Under the pieces are notes generated by a model. That model was not told the origin of the DNA and did not search any database. It was given only the letters and a program-made list of their open reading frames with translations. Both the position numbers and the translations under genes were made by a program. Of a stretch of 64,000 nucleotides of DNA, positions 1,797 through 49,077 are shown in pieces. Where the stretch lies: positions 3,276-67,275 of the forward strand of contig CAZZJI010000007.1 of the NCBI GenBank assembly GCA_964654485.1, in the 5' to 3' direction. The stretch's first letter is position 1, and each line of letters opens with the position of its first letter. This DNA comes from an uncultured Gammaproteobacteria bacterium. Lineage in GTDB: Bacteria; Pseudomonadota; Gammaproteobacteria; SG8-11.

Positions 1797-1850
1797 TCCC
1801 AGTAACCGGATAGATTCCGACTTACTATTTTCAACTAAGAAGCATTATTA

Positions 1851-5629: not shown

Positions 5630-5686
5630 CACTTGTCGCTAACTATTGTTATTAACTTTTGTTGCTAACTACGTCTCATATAAATA

Positions 5687-7714
5687 ATGCTAATGAATAA
5701 CATACTACTCAAAGTCACCGACCTGAAAACCTGGTTCCAGCAAGGTAAAAAAACAGTACGTGCGGTCGATGGAGTTAGCTTCTCAATCAAAAAAGGAGAA
5801 ACTTTCGCATTATTAGGTGAGTCCGGTTGCGGCAAATCAATGACCGCGTTATCTGTTATGCGACTAGTCCCGCAGCCTGCTGGGCGCGTTGTTTCGGGAT
5901 CAATCAAATTAAATGGCACAGAGCTGCTTTCCACACCCGAAACGTCTATGCGAAAAATTCGCGGTGGTCGCATAGCCATGATTTTTCAGGAACCCATGAC
6001 CAGTCTAAACCCGGTATTGACCGTTGGCGAGCAGATTCACGAAAGTGTTATGTTACATAAAGGCCTAAAGGGCAGTGTTGCAAAAACACGAGTATTGGAA
6101 TTGCTTGATGCTGTCGGTATTCCTGATCCAGGCCGACGCTATAACGAATATCCCCATCAGCTGTCTGGCGGCATGAAACAACGCATTATGATTGCGATTG
6201 CCTTGGCGGGTGATCCGGAATTATTAATTGCTGATGAACCGACGACGGCATTGGATGTCACTATCCAGGCACAAGTATTGACGTTACTGGAAGATATTCA
6301 GAAAAAAACAGGCATGGCGATTTTATTGATTACGCATGATTTAGGCATAGTCTCAGAAATGGTTGATCGTGTTGCCGTCATGTACGCAGGCCAAATTGTT
6401 GAGGTGGCGCCTCGCAAAGCATTTTTCGCTAAACCCAAACATCCTTACACCAAAAAATTGTTTGAGTCACTCCCCACCATGGGAAAAAGGGATCAGCCTT
6501 TAGCCGTTATTCGTGGTTCGGTACCAGTGTTATCGCAAGAGTTTCAAGGATGCCGTTTCGAGCCGCGCTGTGAATTCGTCATTGATGTTTGCAAAGAATT
6601 TGTACCAGATTGGATTGAATTTGATGACAGACGTGTGCGTTGTCATTTGGAGGACAAAAAATACGCGGAAAAAAAAGCCATTACTGAAGAGCTTATTAAT
6701 ACCGATGACCATAAACAAACGCCGAAAAAAATTGCCAACGAGACAATACAAGCTAATCTGCTCACTGCCAGGGAATTAACGGTTCATTTTGCGGTACAAT
6801 CAGGGTTCTTAAAAAAACGGGTTGGCTGGGTCAAAGCGGTTGATGGTGTTTCGCTTGATTTGAAAACCGGACAGACTATCGCACTGGTAGGAGAATCCGG
6901 TTGCGGTAAAACAACGGTGGCTAAAGGTATTTTACAACTGCAGAAACTCACTTCGGGCAGCGTCACGTTTAATAATCAGGACGTAAGCACACTGTCTTCT
7001 GTTGCGCTGAAAAACTACCGTGGCGATGTACAAATTATTTTTCAGGATCCATTTTCCTCTATGAATCCGCGAATGAAGGTGCGTGATATTATCTCAGAAG
7101 GCATGATCGCGCAAAAGATCAAGACCGGTGTGAAAGAGCGTGAAGAATGTATAGATGAATTGCTAAACCAGGTGGGATTGCCGGTAGAAGTGAAAAATCG
7201 TTACCCGCACGAATTTTCTGGCGGACAAAGGCAACGAATTTGTGTTGCCCGCGCATTGGCGGTAGATCCAAAACTGATTGTCTGTGATGAACCAACCAGT
7301 GCACTGGATGTATCGGTGCAGGCACAAATTCTTAATCTATTAAAGAAACTACAGAATGAGATGGGTTTGGCCTATCTTTTTATTACACATAATATTTCGG
7401 TAGTGGAATACCTGGCCGATGAAGTTGCAGTCATGTATCTCGGCAGGATTGTTGAACAGGGTAGTGTCGATGAAATATTGAAAACCCCAAAACACCCCTA
7501 TACACAAGCTTTACTCAGCGCGGTTCCTAAGATCGATAAAAAAACGGATAGAGAAGTTATTCGATTGAAAGGTGAGTTACCTTCGCCTGTTAATCCGCCT
7601 GCGGGATGCCATTTTCATCCACGCTGTGGAAAAATAATGGACGATTGCAAAAAAAGATACCCAGCTAAACGAAACCTGGGTAAATCGCGCTGGGTTAGCT
7701 GCTATTTGTACTGA
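5687..7714 (+). CDS. Second dual-NBD ABC ATPase with Cys-rich oligopeptide-type C-terminal segments
   Basis: Two Walker A motifs (GESGCGKS and GESGCGKT), LSGGMKQR and SGGQRQR signatures, CRFEPRC...C and CHFHPRC...C motifs after each NBD. 675 aa. Immediately downstream of yejF. Confidence 0.8.
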
Positions 7715-8573: not shown

Positions 8574-11102
8574 ATGTGTTGTTCAGCCCCGGGTTTAATT
8601 GTGTTTTTGCTTTTGTTGATGCCGATGGCCGGTGTGGCCAATGACGCATTTCCTCGGCCTGCCCAACTCGAACCCGATGTCAATTTTTGGAAGCGTGTGT
8701 ATACCGAAATCAACACTGACCAAGGTTATATTCATGATGATAGAAATCTCAGCGTTGTTTATGAAAAAATTAACTTACCTGCCAATGCCAGCAGAAAAAC
8801 GAGACAACGCTATGTAAAACGGGTAAAGAAAAAATACAAAGCAATATTAAAGAAACTGGCCAAAGGTAACTATCGAAACTTAAATAGAGAAGAAAGTCGT
8901 ATATTGGCGTTATGGCCCAAAGGTGTCAGTAAGAAAACCTTGCGAAGAGCGATTAACCAAACTCGGTTTCAGCGAGGACAATCGGATAAATTTAGAGAAG
9001 GCCTGATTCGATCCGGTATGTGGAAACCTTATATTCTGGAAGTATTGGATAAAATGGATTTGCCTAGGGAAATTTCAGCGCTACCTCATGTGGAATCTTC
9101 TTTTAATCATAAGGCCTATTCGAAAGTAGGCGCTGCCGGGATGTGGCAGTTTATGCGCTCGACAGGTCGGCGATTTATGCGTGTTGATCATGTTGTTGAC
9201 GAACGTATGGATCCGTTGAAGGCGACCGTCGCCGCTGCTAGATTGCTCGATTATAATTTTAAAGTGACCGGCACCTGGCCACTCGCGCTTATTTCCTATA
9301 ATCACGGTTCAGCAGGCATGCGTCGCGCATCACGGGCGATCGGTACCACAGATATTGTGCCGATATTGCGTAAATACAGCAGTCGTACTTTTAAATTTGC
9401 CTCGCGAAATTTTTACGTCGCGTTTCTCGCCGCAGTGGAAATCGATAAAAATTCTGAAAAATATTTTGGGAAGCTTGTTCTAAAACCGCCTTTCGATTAT
9501 GAAATTATAAAAATTCCTGCATACATGACTATAACAGGGATCGGCAAAGCGCTGGGTTTATCCAGCGCTGAATTGAAGTTGTCGAATCCAGCGTTACGCT
9601 CGCCAGTGTGGAATGGCAATAAATATGTTCCAAAAAATTATGAACTTAAAATCGATAACAAATATATTAAAGGAAAAGAATTCGCTAATAACGCGATTGC
9701 GTCTATTGATCCAAGCTTTCATTTTCACAAACAAAAGCCTGATCGATTTCACCGGGTTCGACGTGGGCAGACGCTATCGGTGATCGCTGCACGCTATGGT
9801 GTTCGAGTTAGCGAAATTGTTGCGTTAAATGGGCTTCGTAATCGTCACAGCATTCGTGCGGGTAAAACATTACGCTTGCCGCAAAAAGGGAAAGGGCAGG
9901 TTATAAGACGTACTGTCGTTGCAGAAAATCGTTCTCCAGATATTGGCCCGATACCGATTCCGGAAAGTGGTAAATATAAAGTCCGCCGGGGTGATAATAT
10001 TGATCGTATTGCTAAACGGTTTGGTATTACATCCAAAGAATTACAAAAACTTAATCGCATTCGTAATAAGAACCGTATTTATCCTGGACAGTATCTGACT
10101 TTGGCGAAGGCGCCCAGCGACACTCAGCGGACCTTAACGCAAGCCAAGGAACTACAGTTGGCAAGGGTGGATAAAAAACAAGTTATTTCGCATAAGCCTG
10201 ACGTTACAATTCAGCAATCAAGCCAGCAACAAATACAAGCAGTTGAAAAAATTGCAGTTGTTGCGACTCAAGACAAAGCTGTAAATGTAAAACAAAAAAT
10301 AAAGAAAGTTGAGTTTCCGATATCAGAAACATTGAATAGCGAGACAACAAATCAGAGTGAAAGCCAGGATGCAGACTCCACTGAAGCAAATAATACAAAT
10401 GTGATAATTGCTTCAGTTGTGACAGGAGAAGATGAAAATAAAATTGCGAACCTGGAAACAGTTCCGGTATTGGAGCCGACTGCTGATCAAACCCCGCTAC
10501 AGCTAGAAAATATTAGTGACACAGCGTCAGCAACAGTGCTAACAGATGCAAGTGAACAAGTGTTGAGTTCTATTGAAAATGAAGTAGTGCTTGATAATTC
10601 TAATGAGTCAATTGGTAGTTCGGCAATTTCAGATTCTGAAGACGAGTTATTGGCGGATCCCAGCGATTACTCTGTATTTAAAAACAAAACGATTGAAATA
10701 CAAGCTGCTGAAACATTAGGGCATTATGCCGAATGGTTACAATTAAGAGCGAGTCGCTTGAGAAGGGTAAATTCAATGCGTTATGGTACGCCAGTTGTTG
10801 TTGGCAGACGGTTAAAACTGGATTTTTCCCGAGTGACGCCAGAGCAGTTTGAACAAGAACGGGTTGCCTATCATCGAACCTTACAAGGTGAGTTCTTTGA
10901 GCAGTATCAAATTAACGGCACTGATAAATATAAACTTAGACGGGGTCAATCTATTTGGGTGCTAGCAAATCGAAAATACAAAATACCTATTTGGCTTTTA
11001 CGGCAATATAATCCGGACCTTGATTTCAATAAAGTACGCCGGGGAACTATTATTACCTTTCCCAAAATAGAAGCTCGTTCAACAGTTGAAACGACCGGCT
11101 AA
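8574..11102 (+). CDS. mltD: Membrane-bound lytic murein transglycosylase D-like protein with LysM repeats (ORF opens at 8499; likely start at the MCCS... signal peptide)
   Basis: Lytic transglycosylase catalytic motif ESSFNHKAYSKVGAAGMWQFM. Several LysM-like segments (HRVRRGQTLSVIAARYGV..., YKVRRGDNIDRIAKRFGI..., YKLRRGQSIWVLANRKYKI...). Long acidic Ser/Glu/Asp-rich low-complexity linker. Confidence 0.7.
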   Translation: MCCSAPGLIVFLLLLMPMAGVANDAFPRPAQLEPDVNFWKRVYTEINTDQGYIHDDRNLSVVYEKINLPANASRKTRQRYVKRVKKKYKAILKKLAKGNYRNLNREESRILALWPKGVSKKTLRRAINQTRFQRGQSDKFREGLIRSGMWKPYILEVLDKMDLPREISALPHVESSFNHKAYSKVGAAGMWQFMRSTGRRFMRVDHVVDERMDPLKATVAAARLLDYNFKVTGTWPLALISYNHGSAGMRRASRAIGTTDIVPILRKYSSRTFKFASRNFYVAFLAAVEIDKNSEKYFGKLVLKPPFDYEIIKIPAYMTITGIGKALGLSSAELKLSNPALRSPVWNGNKYVPKNYELKIDNKYIKGKEFANNAIASIDPSFHFHKQKPDRFHRVRRGQTLSVIAARYGVRVSEIVALNGLRNRHSIRAGKTLRLPQKGKGQVIRRTVVAENRSPDIGPIPIPESGKYKVRRGDNIDRIAKRFGITSKELQKLNRIRNKNRIYPGQYLTLAKAPSDTQRTLTQAKELQLARVDKKQVISHKPDVTIQQSSQQQIQAVEKIAVVATQDKAVNVKQKIKKVEFPISETLNSETTNQSESQDADSTEANNTNVIIASVVTGEDENKIANLETVPVLEPTADQTPLQLENISDTASATVLTDASEQVLSSIENEVVLDNSNESIGSSAISDSEDELLADPSDYSVFKNKTIEIQAAETLGHYAEWLQLRASRLRRVNSMRYGTPVVVGRRLKLDFSRVTPEQFEQERVAYHRTLQGEFFEQYQINGTDKYKLRRGQSIWVLANRKYKIPIWLLRQYNPDLDFNKVRRGTIITFPKIEARSTVETTG

Positions 11103-33958: not shown

Positions 33959-34356
33959 ATATTTGACCTGACGGTATAAAAATGTTGTGAGATACGCACA
34001 ATAAATTCAATCGCTGCAATAATTGCTCACATAATGACCAGTCAGAATGATGATATCGTAAGTCAGTATTTGCAATCGATATTAACTAAACTATCGCTAC
34101 CAACTCGACGCCACTAAAAACAGCTTCGGACTCGAAATAAGGTTATCAATATAGAAAGTATAACAGTTATTTTATGTAGGACACTGAGACGGATTGCTAC
34201 GCTCGGAACTTAAGATAGATTAAAGGTATTGTTAAAGAGCCGTTATCAGGATCAGCGTTAATTATTGTTGGCTAATTCAAGACATTAGCCAACAATAATT
34301 CAGGACACAGTATTGTTAATAGCGAACTGCCTTTTTCACTTTTCGCTATTGTATCT

Positions 34357-34746
34357 CTAATGCTTAAATTTATTTTTATTAAAATAAATTATTTGCGCTG
34401 TTGCATGTTGCATTGGTTTTGATATTGGTACAGCGTTCAGTTTCGGTTCCACCAGTAATTTTACCGTGGAAACCAAGCCATTATCGCCGGTGACCGCATC
34501 CCACATCATTGATGATAATTTAATGCAGGCACCCAATGGAGTACGTGCTTTTTTTCGCTCCATATCAATGCGAAATTGTAAGCCTCGTAATCGTCTTTGT
34601 TTGGAAATAGGAATACGCTCGAAAAATTGCTCAATGTAATTCTGACGGCGTTGTTCAAATCCTTCTGGATCATTACTGGCCAGATTAGCCCATTCATCGA
34701 AATCAATTCGAGTGCTTTTTTTGAAATTTTGTTTAATATTTGACAT
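34357..34746 (-). CDS. Small hypothetical protein (possibly DUF3135-like)
   Basis: 129-aa ORF with N-terminal FDEWANLASNDPEGFEQRRQ motif. Family assignment is from memory only. Confidence 0.35.
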   Translation of the reverse strand: MSNIKQNFKKSTRIDFDEWANLASNDPEGFEQRRQNYIEQFFERIPISKQRRLRGLQFRIDMERKKARTPLGACIKLSSMMWDAVTGDNGLVSTVKLLVEPKLNAVPISKPMQHATAQIIYFNKNKFKH

Positions 34747-35082: not shown

Positions 35083-35130
35083 ATGGCGACCCGGAGACGA
35101 TTCGAACGTCCGATGTGGCTTAGCAGGGGG
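35083..35130 (-). other. tRNA/tmRNA-like 3'-terminal fragment (T-arm + acceptor 3' strand + CCA) with no 5' partner
   Basis: Reverse complement reads GGACGTTCGAATCGTCTCCGGGTCGCCA, a T-loop GTTCGAAT with CCA end. No matching 5' acceptor strand (GACCCGG) within about 400 nt. Confidence 0.4.
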
Positions 35131-35419
35131 TGTTTTTTAAAAAAATTAGATTTCCATGACCAAGTAAAGATAAAAATACGGGCCTCATATACGTGTAGGC
35201 AAGGACCGGTTGCGGTCAATGCTTTCGGCTTTACTTGCTGTCTCGCAGGCTTTGATCTCTGCTGATGCGTCAGAAATCTTTCTGCCTTCAATATTCGGTA
35301 AAAACTAGCCTCTGAGGCGATATAGCGTCGTTCATCCTTGTGTCGGAGAAATTATGAAACTAACTACATTAATATATTGCGCTCCATCCAGGCTACGTTA
35401 GTTTTATAATATGTCTCGC

Positions 35420-35779
35420 TTATCTGTTGGTAATTAATTTTGGTTGGCTGAGTTGAAATACACCATTGTGTGCGCCGCCAATATATTCAGCACATACATT
35501 AAGGCATTCACCCACGTGAAAATTCTTAAGAGATTCAAAACAAAATCCCTCGGCAACTTTACCTACAGACGCAAATTGTGGTCCAAAGACTGGATTGATA
35601 CTTAATACTTCAAACTTGACCAGCCATTTGCGCTCATCATCGGGAGTCTGTGAACATTCCAACAGCCGGATTTCCAATTGTGACTCATTGGGTGCAACAG
35701 AAACTGAACCAAATCGTGGTGGTACTGGCCGTGGTGGTACTGGCATGGTGGAAACCTCGTGACAAAACGTATAGGACAA
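35420..35779 (-). CDS. Hypothetical protein (last gene of the protease islet; likely start at MPVPPRP...)
   Basis: 119-aa ORF, Pro-rich N-terminus, co-directional and 60 bp downstream of the M6 protease gene. Confidence 0.4.
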   Translation of the reverse strand: MSYTFCHEVSTMPVPPRPVPPRFGSVSVAPNESQLEIRLLECSQTPDDERKWLVKFEVLSINPVFGPQFASVGKVAEGFCFESLKNFHVGECLNVCAEYIGGAHNGVFQLSQPKLITNR

Positions 35780-35839
35780 CTAACTGCTCGGCATCAAATA
35801 GGGCAATGCCGAGCAGTTGATAGACCAGTATAAACTACA

Positions 35840-37405
35840 TTAGCCAAGATATACACGATATAGCGTATCGTTGTCGACATAAACAGTCACTAAATTGTTA
35901 TTTGCCCGTGCCTCACATAAGGCAGTAAAGGCATTGGTAACGCCATCAGGGTTTCCTGTTTTTATTTTTCGCCACCCTAGCCCCTGAATGTTTGCCCAAG
36001 CATTTTGAGAATGGTAACTAGTGTAGAGACGATTAACAATTTTGTTTGTATGCCACTCCTTAACCGCTGCTCCACCGACGTTAATATTGGCCGTTATATT
36101 TTCTCCCACGCGAGTAATCGCGGAAACATTGACTTCGGAGCCAGTACCATCATACGCGTTGCTGTTGGGCGTGGTCGTAGAATTAAAAGCGTTATTTCCA
36201 TTGAAAGGAAAAGTATCTCCACTGTCTCCGGAATTCGCATTACTGTTCAAGTCTCGCTTGCCATCAGCTTGTTCGATATCTACGAGGTAATGCGCTTCGT
36301 CTGTGTTATTTGATTGATTGTCATCAACATGTTCGATAATACAGCCCTCTCCTGGTAGATAAGAATCAAAACCCAGTTTTTGTCGATTCGCTACCAAAAA
36401 ATACTCTTTTGAATCTGCGCTGCCAATCGGCAATTTATAAACATCACCATTATTGAAATAAGGTTTAATATTTACACTTTGCGCACTATTGAATACCGTC
36501 GTTGAGGAAATCCAACCGGCTTTCAGTTTACACCAGGCAGACGGATGCGCTGGTGTGTGACCGTTGTTGTTCCAGCTGCCTCCGGCCATCAAATCCCATC
36601 GACCGGTACCACGTGATGAATAATCGGTGTCATACAGATCTGGCCAGCTCATTAATAAATGGCCTAGTTCATGTGACATAACACCTACCCGACCATCTTC
36701 CGGCGCCATGAAATAGCTACGTATTTGCACGCCGTTTACCGTCTTCGGCGTAATCGACCACTTGTGCGACCAAAAATCGCTTTTGTCACCCGTCGCTTCA
36801 GCGCCAGAACCAGCGGGAATGATAATCAATGCGTCTACTACACCATCACCATCATTATCGTATTGCGCAAAGTTAATATGAGGAGCAGCAAGATCAATGA
36901 CATCCTCTACCAGTTTCTGAGCGTTACGCGGGTAGTCTGCGAAACCGTAATCTTCATTGGTATAATATGATTTGGGTTGCGGTGCCCGATACCAGCCTAC
37001 AGTGACACCGCCGCTTCCGCCAACTTCGCCAACAATATCCAATTTACCGTATGAGGCTTCCCGGTAAAAGTCGTTCATGCTTCCACCAGCATAAGTTCCG
37101 CTGGAAAAGAGCATATCTCTAAAGTGTGACTGCGTTTGTGTTCCCGCCTTGTCTGAAAAATCCACCAGCAGAACCAAGGCCCTACGTGTGCCGACGATAG
37201 GGCTTAAACCCTTAGTGGGTGAGATCAGGGTATGAGCCCGAGTTTTAGGTGGACGCATCAAGATTTTCGTTGCACTTTCTCGATCGAGAACTTCGTCATC
37301 TGCTTTTTCAGGAAGTTCAAGACCAATACGTAGGCGGTGTTTTGAACGGATAATTTTCTCCTCCAATTCTGGTGAAGGAGGTGCGATACAAAGATTGTTG
37401 GACAT
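35840..37405 (-). CDS. M6-family (immune inhibitor A-like) metallopeptidase domain protein fused to an unrecognised C-terminal domain of about 75 aa
   Basis: HExxH in SHELGHLL. M6-like N-terminal block ALVLLVDFSDK. No signal peptide. The C-terminal 75 aa (YTSYHSQNAWANIQGLGWRKIKTGNPDGVTN...YRVYLG) is repeated in two nearby small ORFs. Confidence 0.7.
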   Translation of the reverse strand: MSNNLCIAPPSPELEEKIIRSKHRLRIGLELPEKADDEVLDRESATKILMRPPKTRAHTLISPTKGLSPIVGTRRALVLLVDFSDKAGTQTQSHFRDMLFSSGTYAGGSMNDFYREASYGKLDIVGEVGGSGGVTVGWYRAPQPKSYYTNEDYGFADYPRNAQKLVEDVIDLAAPHINFAQYDNDGDGVVDALIIIPAGSGAEATGDKSDFWSHKWSITPKTVNGVQIRSYFMAPEDGRVGVMSHELGHLLMSWPDLYDTDYSSRGTGRWDLMAGGSWNNNGHTPAHPSAWCKLKAGWISSTTVFNSAQSVNIKPYFNNGDVYKLPIGSADSKEYFLVANRQKLGFDSYLPGEGCIIEHVDDNQSNNTDEAHYLVDIEQADGKRDLNSNANSGDSGDTFPFNGNNAFNSTTTPNSNAYDGTGSEVNVSAITRVGENITANINVGGAAVKEWHTNKIVNRLYTSYHSQNAWANIQGLGWRKIKTGNPDGVTNAFTALCEARANNNLVTVYVDNDTLYRVYLG

Positions 37406-37488
37406 GGTTTTTTCCTCTTTTTATTGTTAGATTCGATACAAAATTCCTTGCTCTATAGGCGAAGATTCAGTTCCATTTTTGTCTTCGT

Positions 37489-37797
37489 TCAAGCGACCTC
37501 ATGAACATGGATTACCATTTTCTCAATGGATTGCGCCATGGGTACCCGGTACGCTTGCATACTAAGTAAATCACCAAGCTCTATTTTCGGATGACCAGAC
37601 AGGCTCACATGGGCACGAATGATGTAGTCCGATGCGGGATCGCGGACAACGAAGTCTATCGAAAACGATACCGATGTTTTCATGCCAGCTTGGTGGAACA
37701 CATGGTTAATTCGCAAACTAGTTAACTTTATTGAAGATCCATCCAGCATGCCAACGTCTTCCGCGTAAACATACAAAACCGCATCCGCCTGTCGCAA
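37489..37797 (-). CDS. Hypothetical small protein
   Basis: 102-aa ORF tightly packed between the disordered-protein gene and the M6 protease gene. Confidence 0.4.
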   Translation of the reverse strand: MRQADAVLYVYAEDVGMLDGSSIKLTSLRINHVFHQAGMKTSVSFSIDFVVRDPASDYIIRAHVSLSGHPKIELGDLLSMQAYRVPMAQSIEKMVIHVHEVA

Positions 37798-37800
37798 TGC

Positions 37801-38241
37801 TTACTTTTTAGTACTGCTTCGCGAGCTTGCTTTCTTAGTCGTTGGCTTTACCTCTGATTTATCTTCTAAATCAGGCGGCGGTGGTGCATCTTGCGACTGC
37901 GTTTCATCCAAACCAGGTGCCGGTACTACTATGCTACCTATGCTACCGTTCTTGATACTATGGAAAGATTCGTCGGAGAGTGGCCCAGGTGCGCTATCCA
38001 AGTTTGCTAGCGTATCTGCATTCTGCGTAACTTCTTCAGGACCTGGCGCCCCAGAAAAAGCGGCGCTTTCAGTGGCAGCCGACGACTGACCAGCCTCGGG
38101 ACCCGGTGCCGCATTAACGTCCATCTGTATACCAGAAAATGCCAAGTTATGCGGTGCGGGGGCTTCGGCCAAGTCAGCACTTGAAGTATTTTTTAAGAAC
38201 TCCCCGCCCATGGGAATTTTAATCGTGATTTCCGGGATCAT
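37801..38241 (-). CDS. Hypothetical low-complexity protein with APGPE-type repeats
   Basis: 146 aa with the motif (A/S)APGPE three times, a PPPP stretch and a Lys/Ser-rich tail. 3 nt from the next ORF. Confidence 0.45.
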   Translation of the reverse strand: MIPEITIKIPMGGEFLKNTSSADLAEAPAPHNLAFSGIQMDVNAAPGPEAGQSSAATESAAFSGAPGPEEVTQNADTLANLDSAPGPLSDESFHSIKNGSIGSIVVPAPGLDETQSQDAPPPPDLEDKSEVKPTTKKASSRSSTKK

Positions 38242-38316
38242 TTTTCATTCTCCTATAATTTATTTGATGGAACACAATGGCTGCAGTACTGCAGCCATTG
38301 ACAGCCGACATACATC

Positions 38317-38535
38317 TCAATTCATATACGCACGTTCAATAAGATTCTCGACAATATAGACACTAACGGTACGATTATTGGCTTTAGCAACGCTCAGCAA
38401 AGTAAAAGTATTGGTGACGCCATCACTGTTATCAGTTTTTATTTTTCTCCATCCAAGACCATCTATCCGCGCCCAACCATTTTGTGAATGAAAAGTTGTA
38501 TAAGTTTGAAGAACGGCTTTATTATTATTCCACAT
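38317..38535 (-). CDS. Stand-alone copy of the protease C-terminal domain (small protein; ORF opens at 38598, likely start at MWNNN)
   Basis: YTTFHSQNGWARIDGLGWRKIKTDNSDGVTNTFTLLSVAKANNRTVSVYIV aligns residue-for-residue with the C-terminus of the 35840-37405 protein. Confidence 0.55.
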   Translation of the reverse strand: MWNNNKAVLQTYTTFHSQNGWARIDGLGWRKIKTDNSDGVTNTFTLLSVAKANNRTVSVYIVENLIERAYMN

Positions 38536-38657
38536 GATAGTTTCCTCTTTTTTGTTGTTGTAAAAATTTTTTTTCATCAAGATTCGAAGGCAATCCAAAC
38601 TACGACGCTTGCTTTTACTAAAATTATTTATTTTTTATTAAATTATAACGTCTTAAT

Positions 38658-38948
38658 CTAACTTATAAATTTAATTTTATTATTTAAATAGACCCGATAA
38701 ATGCTGCTACCATTTGCAAACACATTGATGGTTCGGTTATTTGCCTTTGCCTCGCATAAAACAACAAAGGTATTGGTAACGCCATCAGAATTACCGATAT
38801 TAATTTTTATCCAACCCAAACCTTGAATTAACGCCCAGGCATTTTGCGAGTGATAAGTCGAATAAACTCGGCCAACGGTATTGTGCGCCGCTGACTGCAA
38901 CGCCCATTTCAAGGTCGTCTTGTGTTGCATCAATATCATCGCCTGCAA
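38658..38948 (-). CDS. Second stand-alone copy of the same domain (ORF overlaps the 38800-39147 ORF in another frame)
   Basis: VYSTYHSQNAWALIQGLGWIKINIGNSDGVTNTFVVLCEAKANNRTINVF...YRVYLN is a third paralogous copy of the domain. Confidence 0.5.
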   Translation of the reverse strand: MQAMILMQHKTTLKWALQSAAHNTVGRVYSTYHSQNAWALIQGLGWIKINIGNSDGVTNTFVVLCEAKANNRTINVFANGSSIYRVYLNNKIKFIS

Positions 38949-39147
38949 GCTTAGCCTGGGTGCGGCTCTTCATCTCTTCTGCGGTACCCAGTACGATATC
39001 GCCTTCGAACAAAGCAAGTCCATCAACAACTGTGTATTGTACTGGCTTATTTTTAAATGTAAGGCCAGAAACGAAACCGGTAAAAATTTCGTCGCCGGAT
39101 TGAAACTCAGTACTTTCGCTTTCGCTTTCGGTATCTTGGTTCGCCAT
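38800..39147 (-). CDS. Hypothetical acidic protein; possibly an N-terminal piece of a frameshifted gene continuing into 38658-38948
   Basis: 115-aa ORF (MANQDTESESESTEF...QYTVVDGLALFEGDIVLG...). Its 3' 149 nt overlap the domain ORF out of frame. Confidence 0.35.
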   Translation of the reverse strand: MANQDTESESESTEFQSGDEIFTGFVSGLTFKNKPVQYTVVDGLALFEGDIVLGTAEEMKSRTQAKLAGDDIDATQDDLEMGVAVSGAQYRWPSLFDLSLAKCLGVNSRFGLDKN

Positions 39148-39459
39148 AGGTTTGTTAGTATTATTATTAATTCCTTCTGCTCACCAAAGCTGAGTGAAAT
39201 CTATTCTTGCAATCGCGTCTATTTTTCACAGTGATAAATTACCCCGGTACTTGTGAAATATTTACTTTGTGATTAAATATTATTCTAATGACTTAAGTTA
39301 AAAACGGTATTTCGAAGTCGATCCCGGAGTGGGTCCCATAGTCAAGACAGTAATCCAAAAATATATGTTGTGACACAGTTTGGGTACAACTGAAGGCATG
39401 GAGGTGAAATTGGGTTGTTGTACTACGTTACGCGGGTATGAGTTATTTCAAAAGAGAAA

Positions 39460-39536
39460 TGGCCCGCTCGAATGGATTCGAACCATCGGCCTGCCCCTTA
39501 GGAGGGGGCTGCTCTATCCAGCTGAGCTACGAGCGG
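39460..39536 (-). tRNA. tRNA-Arg (anticodon CCU)
   Basis: Reverse complement is CCGCTCG-TA-GCTC-AGCTGGATA-GAGC-A-GCCCC-CTCCTAA-GGGGC-AGGCC-GATGG-TTCGAAT-CCATT-CGAGCGG-G-CCA. It forms a clean cloverleaf with an encoded CCA. Confidence 0.85.
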
Positions 39537-39595
39537 TTTGGGGTATTATACAGGATTTGACTGTTAACTTAAGTGCGTTTCCCTAATGATTGTTA

Positions 39596-39637
39596 GCTTA
39601 GGAGGCGACTGCTCTATCCGACTGTGCTACCGGGGCA
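39596..39637 (-). pseudogene. Truncated tRNA-Arg(CCU)-like 5' fragment (acceptor through anticodon loop)
   Basis: Reverse complement GCCCCGG-TA-GCAC-AGTCGGATA-GAGC-A-GTCGC-CTCCTAA-GC, then unrelated sequence. One D-stem mismatch and no 3' half. 60 bp from the intact tRNA-Arg on the same strand. Confidence 0.6.
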
Positions 39638-39690
39638 ACAAACGTGTATTGAATAATCTTGTTGTTACACTAAAATAAATATCGAGTGAT

Positions 39691-39987
39691 TTATGAGTAT
39701 TCATCTGTTTTTCCCCTTTTCCATTTTATATACTGAAGATCTTCATGATGGCCAGAAAATTCAATCCATTCAAATAGAAACCCTTTTAAGCCGCCGAACC
39801 AATCGGGTCGGTAAGCAACGACCTTGTAGGTGATGCAACCTGTCCCCTGGATTTTTCGATTTGTGTGATCTGTTAAAATAACGCTATAAGCTATTGATAT
39901 ATTGATAAAATATGTATGTGACTGGTCATTCACAGACGTATATTTAGAGATTAGAAACCACGTTGGCGTACCTAAAAACGCGGCCAA
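39691..39987 (-). CDS. Hypothetical small protein
   Basis: 98-aa ORF adjacent to the tRNA fragment. No recognisable motifs. Confidence 0.25.
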   Translation of the reverse strand: MAAFLGTPTWFLISKYTSVNDQSHTYFINISIAYSVILTDHTNRKIQGTGCITYKVVAYRPDWFGGLKGFLFEWIEFSGHHEDLQYIKWKRGKTDEYS

Positions 39988-40263: not shown

Positions 40264-41250
40264 ATGCATGCAACATTACCGTTATTAGAAACAACAAATT
40301 TTCCATTGATAAAAAGATCCAGACTCGAAACACTGCAAGTAAATCTGGGTTACAAGTGCAACCAACAGTGTTTACATTGTCACGTTAACGCCAGCCCCCA
40401 ACGAAAAGAGGTGATGGATAAGGAGACTGTTGACACCGTTATCGCTTTTTTGGAATCAACCAACGTAAACTCAAATGCAAACTCAGGCGTAAAGAAGCTG
40501 GACCTCACTGGCGGTGCGCCTGAACTTAATCCGTACTTTCGCAAATTGGTACGTCACGCTCGTCAATTGGGAATTCATGTGATAGACAGGTGTAATCTCA
40601 CAATACTTGAAGAACCCGGTTTTGAAGATTTAGCAGAATTTTTGGCTGAGCAGCAGGTTGAGGTCATCGCATCATTACCATGCTATTTAGAAGATAACGT
40701 AAACAAGCAACGTGGTAGCGGTGTTTTTGGTACCAGTATTAGCGGGTTGCGGAAATTAAATAAATTAGGTTATGGAAAACCAGGCACAGGTTTAGAACTC
40801 AACCTGGTTTACAATCCGCAGGGGCCGGTACTGCCGCCAGCACAAGTGATGCTTGAACAAGACTATAAAGAAAATCTTGGGGAGCGGTTTTCGGTTGTTT
40901 TTAATAATTTATTCACACTTGCCAATATGCCCATTAAACGATTCGGCAGTACGTTAATCTCTAAAGGCCAATTTGAAGACTATATGTTACTTTTACGTGG
41001 CTCTCATAATACTGAAAATTTACGCTCTGTAATGTGCAAAATATTGATAAGTGTTGATTGGCGGGGATATGTGTATGACTGTGATTTTAACCAGATGTTA
41101 GGTTTACCATTGGGTGCAACAAAGAAACCAAGTATACATATAAAAGATTTAACCACAGTTGATCTCGAAGGTGGCTCTATATGTGTAAAAGACCATTGTT
41201 ATGGTTGTACCGCGGGGCAGGGAAGTAGCTGTGGTGGTGCTCTCGCATAA
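40264..41250 (+). CDS. Radical SAM/Cys-rich domain protein (ArsS-like)
   Basis: rSAM motif CNQQCLHC near the N-terminus. C-terminal Cys-rich tail CVKDHCYGCTAGQGSSCGGAL typical of the rSAM/Cys-rich (arsenosugar ArsS-type) family. 328 aa. Confidence 0.65.
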   Translation: MHATLPLLETTNFPLIKRSRLETLQVNLGYKCNQQCLHCHVNASPQRKEVMDKETVDTVIAFLESTNVNSNANSGVKKLDLTGGAPELNPYFRKLVRHARQLGIHVIDRCNLTILEEPGFEDLAEFLAEQQVEVIASLPCYLEDNVNKQRGSGVFGTSISGLRKLNKLGYGKPGTGLELNLVYNPQGPVLPPAQVMLEQDYKENLGERFSVVFNNLFTLANMPIKRFGSTLISKGQFEDYMLLLRGSHNTENLRSVMCKILISVDWRGYVYDCDFNQMLGLPLGATKKPSIHIKDLTTVDLEGGSICVKDHCYGCTAGQGSSCGGALA

Positions 41251-44059: not shown

Positions 44060-44091
44060 ATTTGCTATTTCTCTGGCGTTAATTAGAAATA

Positions 44092-44772
44092 TTATTGTAA
44101 TGCAAAAACAACGGGCACAATAAACTCCAGTGTCTGGTGCAGATTATTTTCCGGCATGGGCGGAAATGGATTTGCCCGTTCGGCCATTTCAAGCGCGGCT
44201 TTATCAAGCAGTCGATTACCGGTGCGCTGTTCCAACGTAATTTTTAGGGTCTGCCCGGTTTGATCGATCAATATGCGTAATCGACCCTCTCCTTCAATGC
44301 GCATACGCTTGGCCCTTTTGGGGTATTTTTTTTGTTTTTCCAGCCAGGCAACGAGTAGCTGTTCATACTTTGCCATAGCGGTGGCGTTCAGTGGTGCAGG
44401 GCTAGATTCTACTGGGGAAGGTTCTTGTATGGAAACAGGTGCTTCCACAACCTCAGGAGGATTTTCAATCGGTAATGGATCAGGTTGTGGTTGTGGTACA
44501 GGTTCTTGAATCACAGGCTCTGGAACATGCCTAGGTTCTGGTTCCGGCTTCGGTTTAGGGGTAACGGGTGGTTTGATTTTTTTCTGAGGTGGCGGTGTGA
44601 CAGGTTCGACAGCGGTGGTGGTCTCTGCAATAGCCGCCAGCAAACTAACACGAAGCGTTTGTTCAGGTGGTTCTGGCAGAGGTGCAGGCAGCGCCAGCCA
44701 AAACGCTATACCGCTATGCAGGGCGAGTGCGACGAGTAGCGCGGTGCTCATTTGCTGCCAGGTGATCGTCAT
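44092..44772 (-). CDS. tonB: Energy transducer TonB
   Basis: N-terminal TM anchor, Pro/Glu/Lys-rich spacer (PKPKPEPEPRHVPEPVIQEPVPQPQPDP), conserved TonB C-terminal domain. Downstream of exbB-exbD. Confidence 0.8.
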   Translation of the reverse strand: MTITWQQMSTALLVALALHSGIAFWLALPAPLPEPPEQTLRVSLLAAIAETTTAVEPVTPPPQKKIKPPVTPKPKPEPEPRHVPEPVIQEPVPQPQPDPLPIENPPEVVEAPVSIQEPSPVESSPAPLNATAMAKYEQLLVAWLEKQKKYPKRAKRMRIEGEGRLRILIDQTGQTLKITLEQRTGNRLLDKAALEMAERANPFPPMPENNLHQTLEFIVPVVFALQ

Positions 44773-44781
44773 GGGTACCGG

Positions 44782-45180
44782 CTACTTCTGGGTGGTGGCT
44801 AATGCAACATTGTTACCGCCAGCGGCGCGAATCTCATCCATGACCTTCAATAGCTGCTGTACTTCGGTACGGGCATCACTTTTCAGGGTAATGGCGACAT
44901 CGGTATTGTCTGCGATCAAGGGTTCGATAGTCTGGCGCAGTTTATCAAGTTGAATCGGTTCGCTATTGAGTGCCAGTTCACCTGACGCGTTGAGAGAAAC
45001 CGTAATCGGTGTAATTTCAGTAACAGTCGCACCAGCAGATTCGGGCAGTTCCAACTCGATGGCTTCCGGCACTAAAAAGGTACTGGTCAACATAAAAAAG
45101 ACCAATAGCAAAAAAACAATATCAATTAATGGCGCGATATCAAGGTGGGAATGGATGCGCGCACGGCCCTCAAATTCCAT
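44782..45180 (-). CDS. exbD: Biopolymer transport protein ExbD/TolR (ORF opens at 45255; likely start at MEFEG...)
   Basis: IAPLIDIVFLLLVFFMLTS TM segment plus periplasmic ExbD domain. About 130 aa from the internal Met. Confidence 0.75.
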   Translation of the reverse strand: MEFEGRARIHSHLDIAPLIDIVFLLLVFFMLTSTFLVPEAIELELPESAGATVTEITPITVSLNASGELALNSEPIQLDKLRQTIEPLIADNTDVAITLKSDARTEVQQLLKVMDEIRAAGGNNVALATTQK

Positions 45181-45847
45181 GGGTTTCGTCCTCGATTTTG
45201 TCGTCGTCACGGGTTGAGATATTGGCCGGTGTTTTACCAAAATGACGCAACACACGAATGCTTACGTCCTTCATGGATGCACGTACATGATCCACTTCAC
45301 CTTCTAAATAATAGAATGCGGCCATAGCGGGAATGGCCACGGTTAATCCAAAGGCAGTGGTTAGCAGTGCTTCCCAAATCCCACCCGAAAGAATCGACGG
45401 ATCAACACGGCTACCGGCGGCTTCAAGATTCATAAAGGCGACAATCATGCCGGTAACTGTGCCTAACAATCCCAACAATGGACTCAAGTGAGCGATGGAT
45501 GAGAGGCCGCGTAGCCACGATTCAAGATTGCGGATTTGCGTAGAACCAACCCGACTCACTTCGGCCTCCACATCTTTTGCCGACATGGCCGGGTCAGCGC
45601 CGCAACGTATGGCACTTTCCATTACACATGCGACGGGGCTGTGCTGTAGTTGTAATGCATGCAAAGCACTGTTGTAATCGCCTTGTTGCAGTGCGGTCAG
45701 TGTTGGATCGACAAAATCTAAACGACGCAGACCACTACGGAAATACTGAAACAGTTTAAGCAGAATGATGGCGACGGCCAGAACAGACATGGCTAGCAGT
45801 ACCCACATGACCGGCCCACCTTGTTGGAATAAACTCACTATATTCAT
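45170..45847 (-). CDS. exbB: MotA/TolQ/ExbB proton-channel protein
   Basis: 225 aa, three TM helices, conserved ExbB C-terminal region (...GTVTGMIVAFMNL...). Confidence 0.8.
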   Translation of the reverse strand: MNIVSLFQQGGPVMWVLLAMSVLAVAIILLKLFQYFRSGLRRLDFVDPTLTALQQGDYNSALHALQLQHSPVACVMESAIRCGADPAMSAKDVEAEVSRVGSTQIRNLESWLRGLSSIAHLSPLLGLLGTVTGMIVAFMNLEAAGSRVDPSILSGGIWEALLTTAFGLTVAIPAMAAFYYLEGEVDHVRASMKDVSIRVLRHFGKTPANISTRDDDKIEDETHGI

Positions 45848-45936
45848 AAGCGCTCAATTAACATTTTTAAAAGGAAACGGGTGGCAACCAAAAGGGCTTG
45901 CTACCCGTAAACGAGCCATTCTTGGCGTAATGGGAT

Positions 45937-48213
45937 TTACAAATCCATTTCAACCCCGGCATAAACGAACTGCGGCAGGCCACCGCGTGCGCCATGGGGC
46001 TGACGCGATACGATATATTCTTCATCAAAGAGATTTTGCACTCCACCGAAGAGTTTCACCGTTTCGTTGATGCGATAAAAGACAGAAATATCCGTGGTAA
46101 AATAACTGTCTGTTTTGCCATATCGAGCATCGGGTTCGCCAGCCCCGTTAACTTGATTGTCAACATTATTGGCGCTGGTATATGTCTCGCTCACATAGTT
46201 ACCCGAGATGAACGCACCCCATTTTTTAGTCTCGACACCGCTACCCAGACTCAATGTAAACTTTGGAATATAAGGCACTGCATTGCCCGCTTTACCGAAG
46301 CTGAAAATCGATTCCGCATCCGTAGACGTTGAATCATTTTTTTGTTCCGCATTGGTATAGGTTGCGCTTAGGTAAGAAGGATTGTTGATCCGCCAATTGT
46401 TAGCGAGTCCGGCATCATATTGAAGTGCGAATTCAATCCCAAAGGTATCTACCTCGCCAAAGTTTTCATCATCACCAGTACCTGTCCCACCGACATTATC
46501 AGTCACGATTAAATCTTCAAAAGCCGTGTAAAAAATAGTGCTTTCAGCCGCAAATGCTTGCTGGATATTGCTATGACGTGTACCGATTTCAAAAGCGATG
46601 CTGGATTCTGGATCAAGGCCAGCGCGTGTGCCCCGAGGGCTGGGAGTGGAATAACCCGTGTGTAGGCCACCAAAACCTGTCCATTGTTCGCTGAACTGGT
46701 AGGCCGCACCCACGCCATAGGCACTGACATTAAAGCTGTTTTTACCGTCCCGACCTTTTGTGCCACCCGCACTTTGCAGGGTACCTTTGGGGTCTTCGGA
46801 GGTTTGATCCAGTGTTTCGTAACGAACTCCGGGTGTGATTGTCCAGGCACCTGTTTCAATGGTGTCTTGAACAAACAGTGCTAAGGCTTTTGTTTCCTGA
46901 AAACGATTACCTGCATCACCGGGTATGCCAGGTGTTATTCCCGTGATGGTGCCGTTAGTGGCCTGAGTATAGGTATCCTCCCATTGAAATCGAGTTATTT
47001 CATCTTGGTGTAGACGAAGGCCAGCCATTATTTCGTGTTGAACGTTGTCTGATCCAAAACGGAAATACCCGACTGACTCAAGACCTTGGGTGTAGTATTT
47101 ACGATTGTTGGCTCTGACTTTTAGTTCACATGCGGCGGTGCCCTTCATGCAGTCCTGAGACAATCCAGGGGTTTCAATAACCTGAGAAAGATTGTCTCCA
47201 TTGAGCGAGTTGAGCTTGTACCAGTTACGCTTGAAATCGGTCTGGTAGAGCGTTGCAATTACATCGAGATCATCAGTGGGGCTGATGCTCCAGCGCAACG
47301 AGGTTTGTTTCTGCTCACTTTTAATGTTATCGAAACGCGATGCCGCATAACGACGTAATGGATTGGCATTAAAATCAGCTTGGCTCAAGCCGAGATAGGT
47401 CTCATTGGCATCCAGTTCACTGGTGCCATGTTTAAATTCAAAACGTTGATACACCGCACTGTTCGGCTCCCATGATAGTTTCACCATGGCATCTGTTTTA
47501 TCAAAGCCGGTGTCATCACCGCTGCGAAAATCAGCAGTCTCATCAATTTTTTTGAAGCCGTTACTCTGTCGACGGTAACCTTCTACCAAAGCACCAAATT
47601 GCCCGGCCGCATCTGTATCAAAGGTATTTCCAAAATAGGCATGGGTACGTTGCTCGTTAAAACTGCCGAGCGTTGATTTCAGATAAGCCTTCTCTTTTGT
47701 TGGGATGGGGGTTGAAAGGTAGTTGATTACGCCGCCGGTTGTGTGAGGGCCGTATTTGATCTGACTGGACCCCTTCAATACTTCTAGTCCGCTCATGCGT
47801 CCCGTGGTGGGTGAATAGTAGGCCGCTGGCGCGGAATAAGGCGCAGGTGACATCATTACCCCATCTTCCATGATGGTTATTTTGGAATTACGGGTGGTAT
47901 CAACACCGCGTAAACTGATGCTGGGGAAGAGGCCAAAACCGTCTTCCTCTCGCACGTAAACCCCCGGCACCTTGCGAAGCACGCGGTTCACATCATCATA
48001 ATTTTGCTGACGAATATCTTCTTTTGTTATTACCTGGGCAGAGCCTGGTATTTTTTCGATATTAGCCGGATTACCAATCACCATGATTTTATCAAGCACA
48101 TTGGCCTTTGTATCCATCTCATCAGACTCTTTATCTGCTGCGTCAGCGGGTAGTACCAGGCCAAGCGTGGCAATAGCGATGGCATCGCGTAATAAACGAT
48201 GTTGTTTTTTCAC
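45937..48213 (-). CDS. TonB-dependent outer-membrane receptor (siderophore-type)
   Basis: Signal peptide, TonB box/plug domain (…DKIMVIGNP…VPGVYVREEDGFGLFPSISLRGV), 758-aa beta-barrel. Followed by exbB-exbD-tonB. Fur-box-like sites upstream. Confidence 0.8.
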   Translation of the reverse strand: MKKQHRLLRDAIAIATLGLVLPADAADKESDEMDTKANVLDKIMVIGNPANIEKIPGSAQVITKEDIRQQNYDDVNRVLRKVPGVYVREEDGFGLFPSISLRGVDTTRNSKITIMEDGVMMSPAPYSAPAAYYSPTTGRMSGLEVLKGSSQIKYGPHTTGGVINYLSTPIPTKEKAYLKSTLGSFNEQRTHAYFGNTFDTDAAGQFGALVEGYRRQSNGFKKIDETADFRSGDDTGFDKTDAMVKLSWEPNSAVYQRFEFKHGTSELDANETYLGLSQADFNANPLRRYAASRFDNIKSEQKQTSLRWSISPTDDLDVIATLYQTDFKRNWYKLNSLNGDNLSQVIETPGLSQDCMKGTAACELKVRANNRKYYTQGLESVGYFRFGSDNVQHEIMAGLRLHQDEITRFQWEDTYTQATNGTITGITPGIPGDAGNRFQETKALALFVQDTIETGAWTITPGVRYETLDQTSEDPKGTLQSAGGTKGRDGKNSFNVSAYGVGAAYQFSEQWTGFGGLHTGYSTPSPRGTRAGLDPESSIAFEIGTRHSNIQQAFAAESTIFYTAFEDLIVTDNVGGTGTGDDENFGEVDTFGIEFALQYDAGLANNWRINNPSYLSATYTNAEQKNDSTSTDAESIFSFGKAGNAVPYIPKFTLSLGSGVETKKWGAFISGNYVSETYTSANNVDNQVNGAGEPDARYGKTDSYFTTDISVFYRINETVKLFGGVQNLFDEEYIVSRQPHGARGGLPQFVYAGVEMDL

Positions 48214-48341
48214 TGTTTCAATCCCTCAATGTTGTAGTTTTACGATGATGCCGCCTTAGTCGTGGCTCTCTATAACGAGTACTGGAGCAGGGGCTGATAA
48301 CTGGCTGGCTACGTGAGATTATAAATGGATCAATATTAAAT

Positions 48342-48360
48342 GTAAATGATAATCATTCGC
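48342..48360. promoter_or_regulatory. Fur-box-like operator upstream of the TonB-dependent receptor
   Basis: gtAAATGATAATCATTcgc matches the 19-bp Fur consensus GATAATGATAATCATTATC at 14 of 17 aligned positions. About 130 bp upstream of the receptor start codon. Confidence 0.55.
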
Positions 48361-48460
48361 ATTTACATGGGTAAGAAGTATGAATTTAGGATTTCGATGT
48401 GACACCTTGGAGTTTTGAATGAAGTTTTGTCTATTGTACAAATTAATGCTTGCAAATACA

Positions 48461-48479
48461 AATGATTCTCATTATCATT
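48461..48479. promoter_or_regulatory. Second Fur-box-like operator, between the receptor and the divergent small ORF
   Basis: AATGATTCTCATTATCATT matches Fur consensus positions 4-19 at 14 of 16. About 100 bp upstream of the + strand ORF starting at 48582. Confidence 0.5.
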
Positions 48480-48581
48480 TAAAAAAGATTGAGAGATACC
48501 CAGCGCGGTTTTGCCTATGAAGGGCTTAACTCAGCCAGGAGGATGCGGATGTAGTTATTTGAAATCAAAGGAGAACTGCTG

Positions 48582-48860
48582 ATGACATATATGATCAATG
48601 CCCGGCTGGAGCGAGGAGTCCCTTCGCTGACACTAATTGATGCGATGACAGGCGAAGAACGTCTTCATTGGTATGGTGATAACGTCGTTAAAGGCGAGCG
48701 TGACTGGCAGGGTCTGTTTAAGCGGTTGATACTGCTTTCTTGTGCTGACCGGCTCAGTTTGGTTCAGCGTGCAAAATCACCCGTTTTTGGTGACGAGTGC
48801 TTCGAATGCAGTACGTGCGTTGACCAAGGTGCACCAACAGAAACGCAAACGCACATATGA
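48582..48860 (+). CDS. Hypothetical small Cys-containing protein, divergent from the TonB-dependent receptor
   Basis: 92-aa ORF, visibly more GC-rich than its surroundings, with a CADRLS...CFECSTC pattern. Preceded by the Fur-box-like site. Confidence 0.4.
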   Translation: MTYMINARLERGVPSLTLIDAMTGEERLHWYGDNVVKGERDWQGLFKRLILLSCADRLSLVQRAKSPVFGDECFECSTCVDQGAPTETQTHI

Positions 48861-49077
48861 TTACAGAGATGAATAACACTGATGTTAAAAACAGTGTTGT
48901 CTCGTTACTAAAGTTGTGAAAAAAGTTGTGAAAAATGTGAATAAGCCGGAAGTTTCCTCCCCCATGGCTGCGGGGGTATCACAAACAGATGATGTGCCTC
49001 TATTGTACGGCGTATAACAAGTTATCAAATCGTCCACCTATAAAGCTCGATCTAACTAACTCCCAGGTGGCGAACCA

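Follow-up and report, generated by a model that had tools for sequence, protein, structure and literature searches.

How did a set of protease genes come to lie between an intact tRNA gene and pieces of another, and which of these tRNA sequences is native to the site? The locus in question occupies positions 35084 to 39636 of a stretch of 64,000 nucleotides (the window) from contig CAZZJI010000007.1 of an uncultured gammaproteobacterium (GenBank assembly GCA_964654485.1; lineage SG8-11). It holds an intact tRNA-Arg(CCU), a run of genes including one for a metalloprotease, and a truncated tRNA sequence at either side. A preliminary description of this DNA had read the layout as the classic footprint of an island at the 3′ end of an intact tRNA. 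We found instead that the two pieces are the halves of one native tRNA-Arg(CCU) gene, which is split in its anticodon loop and has not been restored, and that the intact tRNA is foreign and internal to the insert. Hence, horizontal acquisition of DNA at a tRNA-Arg locus stands, and the classic footprint does not. The elements that define the locus are the following.

39596..39636, minus strand: 5′ part of the native tRNA-Arg(CCU), now a pseudogene half, on the side of the left attachment site (attL); nucleotides 1-41, from the acceptor to anticodon loop +2
35084..35126, minus strand: 3′ part of the native tRNA-Arg(CCU), on the side of the right attachment site (attR); anticodon loop, 3′ anticodon stem, shortened variable loop, T arm, acceptor, and CCA
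35127-39595: insert of 4,469 bp in the anticodon loop of the native tRNA-Arg(CCU)
39596..39604, minus strand: left repeat copy CTCCTAAGC, anticodon loop plus 2 nucleotides, read from the sequence
35118..35126, minus strand: right repeat copy CTGCTAAGC, with one mismatch at the first anticodon base
39460..39536, minus strand: intact tRNA-Arg(CCU), anticodon called CCT; ARAGORN, and Rfam tRNA at 63.8 bits (E 1.7e-12) with a full cloverleaf
39537..39595, minus strand: leader or spacer of 59 bp inside the insert, with a TATAAT hexamer at 39545-39550 that ends 8 nucleotides before the tRNA

The two pieces were assigned by comparison with the native tRNA-Arg(CCU) of related bacteria, the sequence of which (GCCCCGGTAGCTCAG..GGATAGAGCAGTCGCCTCCTAAGCGACAGGTCGGACGTTCGAATCGTCTCCGGGGCACCA) is near-invariant in the relatives L084, L166, L168, and L165. 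The 5′ piece (39636-39596) agrees with nucleotides 1-41 of the L084 gene at 38/41 positions (E 1.5e-11). Within the 3′ piece, 35113-35090 is identical to nucleotides 48-71 of that gene (24/24, E 1.4e-8), and the match beyond nucleotide 71 continues with two substitutions and then the CCA at 35084. Neither half is called by ARAGORN alone; their in silico joining at the shared CTAAGC gives a 76-nucleotide sequence (75 nucleotides of tRNA) that is called as tRNA-Arg(CCT). Since the pieces map onto the native tRNA of the relatives, keep the spacing to the flank, and yield a tRNA-Arg(CCT) when rejoined, they are halves of one gene. Both dead halves have acquired changes that break base pairs, namely T12A in the D stem and G to T in the 3′ strand of the acceptor, and the 3′ half has also lost two nucleotides from the variable loop. 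The truncated tRNA-Arg-like 5′ fragment noted earlier beyond the intact tRNA is thus real and lies 59 bp away from it. The remnant on the other side (35083-35130) had been called tRNA- or tmRNA-like; its T arm, acceptor, and CCA are present at 35084-35126, and it is not tmRNA-like, being the 3′ part of the same tRNA-Arg. Rfam covariance models run over 33.4-40.4 kb at E≤10 recovered the intact tRNA as the sole match and reported neither fragment and no tmRNA, and the fragments were validated via homology to relatives and not via these models.

Two chromosomal genes outside the insert allowed the site to be located in other genomes.

34357..34746, minus strand: DUF3135 gene (Pfam 2.5e-26)
40264..41250, plus strand: ArsS-type radical SAM gene (TIGR04167, 8e-135)

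The relatives were found by a metagenome scan with the DUF3135 protein, which gave L084, and by look-ups of ArsS homologues. A scan of a genome collection with PrkA, a query too conserved for the purpose, kept 80 loci of at most 84% identity, only one of which (L004) was informative. In L084 (DUF3135 84% identical; ArsS 91.5% identical in amino acids), ArsS is followed by 418 bp, an intact tRNA-Arg(CCT), 350 bp, and DUF3135, with no protease genes. L166, a 19-kb contig conspecific with L084, and the window are colinear over 19 kb, with 84-88% nucleotide identity between the UDP-glucose dehydrogenase gene and flgC; in L166 the tRNA lies 361 bp from DUF3135, and homology of this contig to the window stops at 35127, inside the tRNA, and restarts near ArsS. 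L168 (ArsS 85% identical) likewise has an intact tRNA-Arg(CCU) about 300 bp from DUF3135 and no protease genes, and the more distant L004 keeps tRNA-Arg(CCT), 345 bp, DUF3135, and PrkA in the same order. The 3′ remnant in the window is 337 bp from DUF3135, compared with 345-361 bp for the intact tRNA in L004, L084, and L166, and from the remnant up to DUF3135 the window aligns to the spacer that separates tRNA and DUF3135 in L084 and L166. The insert is therefore absent at the same site in two sister lineages, L084/L166 and L168, and the proposed synteny comparison comes out as predicted, with tRNA-Arg(CCU) 300-361 bp from DUF3135 in both. The DUF3135 gene itself occupies part of what had been described, apparently for the flank at 34.3-35.0 kb, as 0.7 kb of DNA free of open reading frames (ORFs).

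The closest relative, L165 (ArsS 94% identical in amino acids; 92.5% nucleotide identity over 4 kb), shows the native tRNA uninterrupted, but its contig ends inside the tRNA and the sequence downstream is not seen. The insertion is later than the split from a lineage 92.5% identical in nucleotides. The insert had been called old; decay is indeed present, this timing speaks against great age, and the age remains uncertain. Contigs of the same species (at least 99.5% nucleotide identity) from three metagenome samples all have the insert, and the L170 contig covers the 5′ half, the leader, and part of the intact tRNA.

From the left junction onward on the minus strand, the order within the insert is the 59-bp leader, the intact tRNA, 312 bp of non-coding sequence, a gene cassette, and another 290 bp of non-coding sequence. 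With a position internal to the insert, 59 bp away from its left junction, the intact tRNA is cargo rather than an anchor. Its call is firm, as the preliminary description had it, and it is the sole tRNA that ARAGORN finds in the 64-kb window. Compared with the native type, it is identical at 56/77 positions and differs at 21/77, mainly in the acceptor, anticodon, and T stems, and it is a foreign gene for the same isoacceptor. Tandem duplication of the native tRNA was considered as its source and rejected on account of the differences in these three stems. No exact match to the cargo tRNA exists in the loci covered by this search or in IMG/VR, and blastn against plasmids and phages gave generic tRNA similarity of 75-83% only. 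The leader has no homology to the region upstream of the relatives’ tRNA. A promoter scan did not call the TATAAT at 39545-39550, the -35 element being weak. The cargo tRNA is presumably expressed and compensating, reading AGG codons (2.85 per 1000 codons in host genes) in place of the destroyed gene.

Both junctions carry an imperfect direct repeat of 9 bp (8/9), the native sequence being CTCCTAAGC. Across the window, both strands included, CTSCTAAGC is confined to 39596 and 35118. The sequence past the left core (TAACAATC...) is not tRNA-like, and neither ARAGORN nor Rfam finds a tRNA at either junction. The ends of the insert share no 9-mer, direct or inverted, within 300 bp of each end, and no repeated 8- or 9-mers, arm-type repeats, or inverted repeats were seen there.

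We consider it likely that the region is a decayed integrative element that entered the native tRNA-Arg(CCU) by site-specific recombination in the anticodon loop, and thus a new example of the tRNA-dependent-lysogeny type. Tyrosine integrases carry out this mode of integration, in which the attachment sites of phage (attP) and host (attB) share 8-17 bp, commonly in the anticodon loop, and the host tRNA is lost and complemented by a phage tRNA of the same isotype (PMC10865867). It has been shown experimentally for mycobacteriophages and inferred for other actinobacteriophages (Fionnbharth, LeBron, Gaia; Guerrero-Bustamante & Hatfull 2024, PMC10865867). The assignment is based on four properties of the locus, which are the target in the anticodon loop, the duplicated core of 9-10 bp, the lack of a rebuilt tRNA, and the cognate tRNA just inside the insert.

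According to this proposal, the element and the chromosome would have shared only the core of about 9-10 bp (CTCCTAAGC), and neither junction would have rebuilt a working tRNA because the core was so short. The 5′ 41 nucleotides of the native gene would have stayed at one end, and the 3′ part would have ended up 4.47 kb away. The predicted attP junction reads …AAAAAACACCCC-CTSCTAAGC-TAACAATCATTAGGG…, and the attP form CACCCCCTSCTAAGCTAACAATC is expected beside a tyrosine integrase in the parent element. A complete tRNA-Arg with the same CCU anticodon and the -10-like TATAAT just upstream would have been brought in, together with a six-gene two-metalloprotease cassette as cargo. If the cargo tRNA replaces the destroyed gene, simple loss of the insert would be costly. 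After insertion, the recombinase would have been lost with a 135-bp rve piece kept, the astacin gene of the cassette would have lost its catalytic domain, and both dead tRNA halves would have mutated. A full tRNA beside attP may represent the tRNA of a former host that was captured, with a long core relaxed afterwards; such an origin is discussed in PMC10865867 and is speculation here.

Decay of the insert is visible in the astacin pseudogene, in the point changes of both tRNA halves, and in a transposase fragment near the right junction.

35202..35336, minus strand: remnant of an HTH_32 + rve (DDE) transposase, 135 bp, residues ~95-139 (linker) of a protein of ~300-350 residues

The fragment was found by phmmer alone, using the stop-free frame 35351-35100 against 1.84 billion proteins, as Pfam and NCBIfam gave no match on the stop-free frames of the non-coding ends. 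There were 71 matches at E≤1e-3 (best 5e-12), all over frame residues 5-52, with pairwise identities of 58-76% over 45 residues. The long matches are HTH_32 + rve transposases, and the match ends exactly at the start of the rve domain. Since the transposase is truncated at both ends, deletions have trimmed the insert.

Several points weigh against integration by the proposed route. Scans with Pfam and NCBIfam of every ORF and stop-free frame in the insert, and of ten genes flanking it, detected neither an integrase nor an excisionase, which bears out the earlier statement that no integrase remains; the gene may have been lost by deletion, and the tyrosine-type integrase is an agent that we infer. 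The sole recombinase trace is the DDE (rve) fragment 70 bp from the right junction, and the 9-bp repeat could be a target-site duplication. There is one mismatch between the repeat copies, the 3′ half deviates from the native type directly right of the core (G to C, GG lost), and the right junction may not be pristine. No intact parent element and no second copy of the cargo tRNA were found. Because tRNA-Arg(CCU) is dispensable in some bacteria (E. coli argW), compensation and ‘addiction’ may be weak. The copies of tRNA-Arg(CCU) were assessed within the 64-kb window. Finally, the composition is host-like and gives no foreign signal. The insert has a GC content of 43.4% compared with 42.0% for the window, and a GC content at third codon positions of 0.40 compared with 0.38; its tetranucleotide distance is smaller than the sliding-window mean. 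The composition and codon-usage comparison suggested earlier thus does not single out the insert, and we regard it as uninformative rather than counter to insertion. The insert contains no phage genes, and the M6 protease of the cassette and the cargo tRNA are unmatched in IMG/VR; the PHROGs library was not searched.

Part of these points would be accommodated by transposition, the main alternative, which we hold to be improbable. A DDE transposon, or a segment mobilised by an insertion sequence (IS), would have carried the tRNA-Arg(CCU) and the cassette into the native tRNA, and the 9-bp repeat would be its target-site duplication. A flanking repeat of 9 bp is a typical size for several transposon families, but rve-type IS3/IS481 elements usually make shorter duplications. 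The HTH_32 + rve remnant does lie 70 bp from the right junction; it is truncated on both sides, however, and is internal debris. The insert has no integrase, and one other copy of the cassette (L156) is surrounded by IS elements, as transposition would predict, yet terminal inverted repeats are lacking, and the outermost 300 bp at the two ends have no 9-mer in common, direct or inverted. Moreover, that an element carrying a tRNA-Arg(CCU) should hit a tRNA-Arg(CCU) would be a coincidence under transposition, whereas it is the expected design for short-core integrase systems (PMC10865867).

Recombination with a foreign chromosomal tRNA-Arg locus has a small chance of being correct. Such a locus, comprising the donor tRNA, the cassette, and an att-type fragment, would have been taken up and spliced at the anticodon loop by homology-facilitated or illegitimate recombination with no dedicated recombinase. 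The missing recombinase gene would then need no explanation, and both tRNA types share the identical stretch CCTCCTAAG. The left junction, however, is 59 bp upstream of the cargo tRNA, in sequence unlike the native locus, and illegitimate joining normally gives no 9-bp target duplication at both ends. The sequence CCCCCTGCTAAG just inside the right junction agrees at 11/12 positions with CCCCCTCCTAAG of the anticodon arm of the cargo tRNA and would fit the remains of a donor repeat, but the resemblance is a run of C residues only. The remaining model, in which a classical island integrated at the 3′ end of a native anchor, the intact tRNA at 39460-39536, and past att duplications left the fragments as unrelated debris, has in its favor that the genes adjoin the 3′ end of the intact tRNA, the commonest island layout according to a passage of PMC4383910, but it is extremely improbable and refuted by the alignments, as the intact tRNA differs at 21/77 positions from the native type conserved in three sister lineages, the two fragments together rebuild the native tRNA, the conserved flank continues into the 3′ fragment rather than into the intact gene, and a classical island leaves no 5′ half upstream of a restored gene.

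We then inspected the genes that the insert carries. The seven co-directional minus-strand ORFs (35420-39147) of the preliminary description exist, but two of them belong to a single astacin pseudogene, of which 38800-39147 and 38658-38948 are the opposite ends. The set is a six-gene cassette that is conserved across phyla. Besides an astacin and an M6 protease, it encodes a 72-residue OB-fold protein, disordered and YscW-like proteins, and a protein of about 100 residues.

38682..39147, minus strand: astacin (M12A) pseudogene; residues 1-91 and 278-343 kept, 571 bp lost at the junction 38868/38869, frameshift
38317..38535, minus strand: p72, a stand-alone 72-residue OB-fold protein with homology to the C-terminal domain of each protease
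37801..38241, minus strand: Pro-rich disordered protein of 146 residues with repeated (A/S)APGP motifs and a Lys-rich tail; homologues at the same cassette position, no Pfam match
37489..37797, minus strand: small protein of the YscW family, 46-49% identical to p121 of L156 and p115 of L157
35840..37405, minus strand: M6 (immune-inhibitor-A-like) metalloprotease of 521 residues with a HELGH (HExxH) motif and a C-terminal OB-fold domain
35420..35779, minus strand: last cassette gene, a protein of about 100 residues, 53-55% identical to p105 of L156 and p101 of L157; no family match

The M6 protease is well supported as a family member (TIGR03296, 234.4 bits with a cutoff of 110.8; Pfam Peptidase_M6, PF05547, 1.8e-24), and the protein is identical in contigs from three metagenome samples. 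It had been taken for a special fusion. Its best 120 homologues, however, are all 507-546 residues long and cover 97-100% of the query; hence the C-terminal domain belongs to the standard family architecture. Of the two stand-alone copies of this domain that had been proposed, one is real, the 72-residue protein at 38317-38535. At the level of fold, the domain matches AB5-toxin B subunits (LT-IIb B, 9.7; pertussis S5, 8.7; Stx2 B, 8.1) and the inclusion protein CipA of Photorhabdus (9.2), at a sequence identity of 4-14% throughout.

The astacin gene has lost its catalytic domain (residues ~92-277). The deletion corresponds to 1056-1626 of L172 in a blastn alignment, in agreement with tblastn using the intact astacins of L156 and L157. 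What is left has no Pfam match (PF01400), compared with 1.7e-47 for the intact L157 astacin, and its N-terminus matches LegP (2.5e-5). In the Halomonas copies (L163 8660-8857 and L164 1098-1295), the astacin position has a 65-residue ORF only and the M6 gene is kept; the Halomonas astacin may have degraded independently, as in the window. The YscW-family protein of the window is about 20 residues short at its N-terminus, aligning from residue 24 of p121 and residue 18 of p115, and has no Pfam match, whereas the L156 and L157 homologues score above the cutoff (1.8e-9 and 8.3e-7). Its gene, which starts 3 nucleotides past the stop codon of the one before it, may be another damaged gene, besides that for astacin, or may be translationally coupled. 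The homologues of the disordered protein are very divergent and range from 135 to 209 residues. The window copy and those of L156, L157, and L162 keep an N-terminal EITIKIPM, four to five repeats of the (A/S)APGP type, and a Lys-rich C-terminal tail. This protein could be a scaffold or a substrate of the two proteases.

The same gene order was found by tblastn and blastn in seven further contexts (L156, L157-159, L160/161, L162, L163/164, L171, and L172), none of which is beside a tRNA. These contexts include Nitrosomonas marina, Halomonas, a plasmid-like contig, and an 8-Mb genome, and the encoded proteins there have about 341 residues (astacin), 72, 135-209 (disordered protein), 115-121 (YscW family), 521 (M6), and about 100. 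The hosts named for the M6 homologues (Nitrosomonas marina, Halomonas, Coralliovum, Fodinibius, Vibrio, Algibacter, and Tamlana) are phylogenetically scattered. In L156, which has the closest M6 homologue (79%), the surroundings at 1-7500 are plasmid-like or mobile, and immediately upstream of the cassette are two repeats of a DDE_Tnp_1 IS plus an HU gene along with ParA, an RHH antitoxin, a MazE-like gene, and a resolvase. PADLOC matched 0/6 of the L157 cassette proteins to any anti-phage defence family, inspection by eye found no signal peptide in any cassette protein, and a literature search for a cassette of astacin and M6 returned nothing relevant. What can be said of the cassette is that it is a mobile module of two zymogen proteases with a shared OB-fold domain; it moves among distant marine bacteria.

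Aside from the insert, the surrounding DNA shows further variation. Between the tRNA 5′ half and ArsS, 39720-39779 (plus strand) encodes a 20-residue remnant of the C-terminus of a VapC PIN-domain protein, 80% identical to residues 117-136 of the L168 VapC (E 6e-6). L168 has an intact gene pair at 8934-9573, apparently vapBC, encoding a 73-residue protein without Pfam match and a PIN-domain protein, and L084 has neither. The spacer upstream of the tRNA is therefore also a site of recurrent insertion and loss. On the other side, the 0.9-kb spacer between DUF3135 and prkA, which has no ORF of at least 60 residues, contains a perfect 17-bp inverted repeat with a 7-nucleotide loop (34260-34300). 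No other part of the window deviates as strongly in tetranucleotide composition as a block encoding TonB, ExbD, ExbB, and a TonB-dependent receptor (44064-49076; GC 47-50%). L166 and L168 lack this block, and Pyr_redox there directly abuts a YcgR-like gene (L166 13802|13809 corresponding to window 44063|49077); the start of the block is present in L165. It represents another insertion or deletion polymorphism, separate from the first and 4.4 kb away.

It is tempting, though on present evidence rather unlikely, to see in the insert a minimal recombinase-less ‘tRNA-replacement’ cassette that holds an isoacceptor hostage as the only working copy, with the linked two-protease module, apparently cytoplasmic, being perhaps a new protease complex (toxin, inclusion body, or defence system) spread by such vehicles. 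If this is true, the two-protease module cannot be lost by simple deletion. The six-gene cassette is flagged here as widespread, uncharacterised, and conserved from Bacteroidota to Proteobacteria. The locus also provides a sequence-resolved example, outside actinobacteriophages, of a tRNA-killing integration with an element-borne cognate tRNA, and the authors of the 2024 study asked how widespread such integration is (PMC10865867). Once the recombinase is gone, such an event leaves two orphan tRNA halves and an intact tRNA of foreign origin. Among annotation pipelines and island finders, those that assume a restored tRNA would misplace the island boundary and take the intact tRNA for native.

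The cassette proteins differ from M6 proteases of the InhA/PrtV type, LegP-type astacins, AB5-toxin B subunits, and CipA in having no visible signal peptide, and the OB-fold likeness is at the fold level only. Cis-mobilisable elements (CIMEs) of streptococcal integrative and conjugative elements are integrase-less, att-flanked remnants. The window insert resembles them in its att-type flanking repeats and in lacking recombination genes of its own, and it is probably a deletion product of a larger integrative element; unlike for CIMEs, no related complete element was found. Classical tRNA islands of the Islander type share with it the tRNA target, direct repeats at the ends, absence in relatives, and accessory cargo, but, as a passage of PMC4383910 describes them, they restore the tRNA with their own 3′ segment and leave a displaced 3′ fragment only, whereas here the tRNA is unrestored and both halves remain. 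Comparable are prophage-related sequences of Sinorhizobium meliloti, for which a section of PMC11476347 reports substitution of a host tRNA by an element-borne one, and prophage Lj965 of Lactobacillus johnsonii, mentioned for host-tRNA substitution in a passage of PMC10865867. As these passages present them, a tRNA that resembles those of unrelated taxa functionally replaces the host tRNA, as would be the case in the window, but the regions are recognisably prophage-related and have integrases. Compared with the phages of tRNA-dependent lysogeny, the window lacks an integrase, phage genes, and arm-type sites; the insert is a recombinase-less remnant of only 4.47 kb with non-phage protease cargo in a marine gammaproteobacterium, which makes it notable, and dependence of the host on the cargo tRNA is presumed. 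The two agree in that the host tRNA gene is overlapped at the anticodon loop by a core of 8-17 bp (9-10 bp in the window), no tRNA is rebuilt, and a cognate tRNA is carried. This insertion logic has been known since 2024 and has been noted in Proteobacteria, and the window adds a further case of it rather than a new kind.

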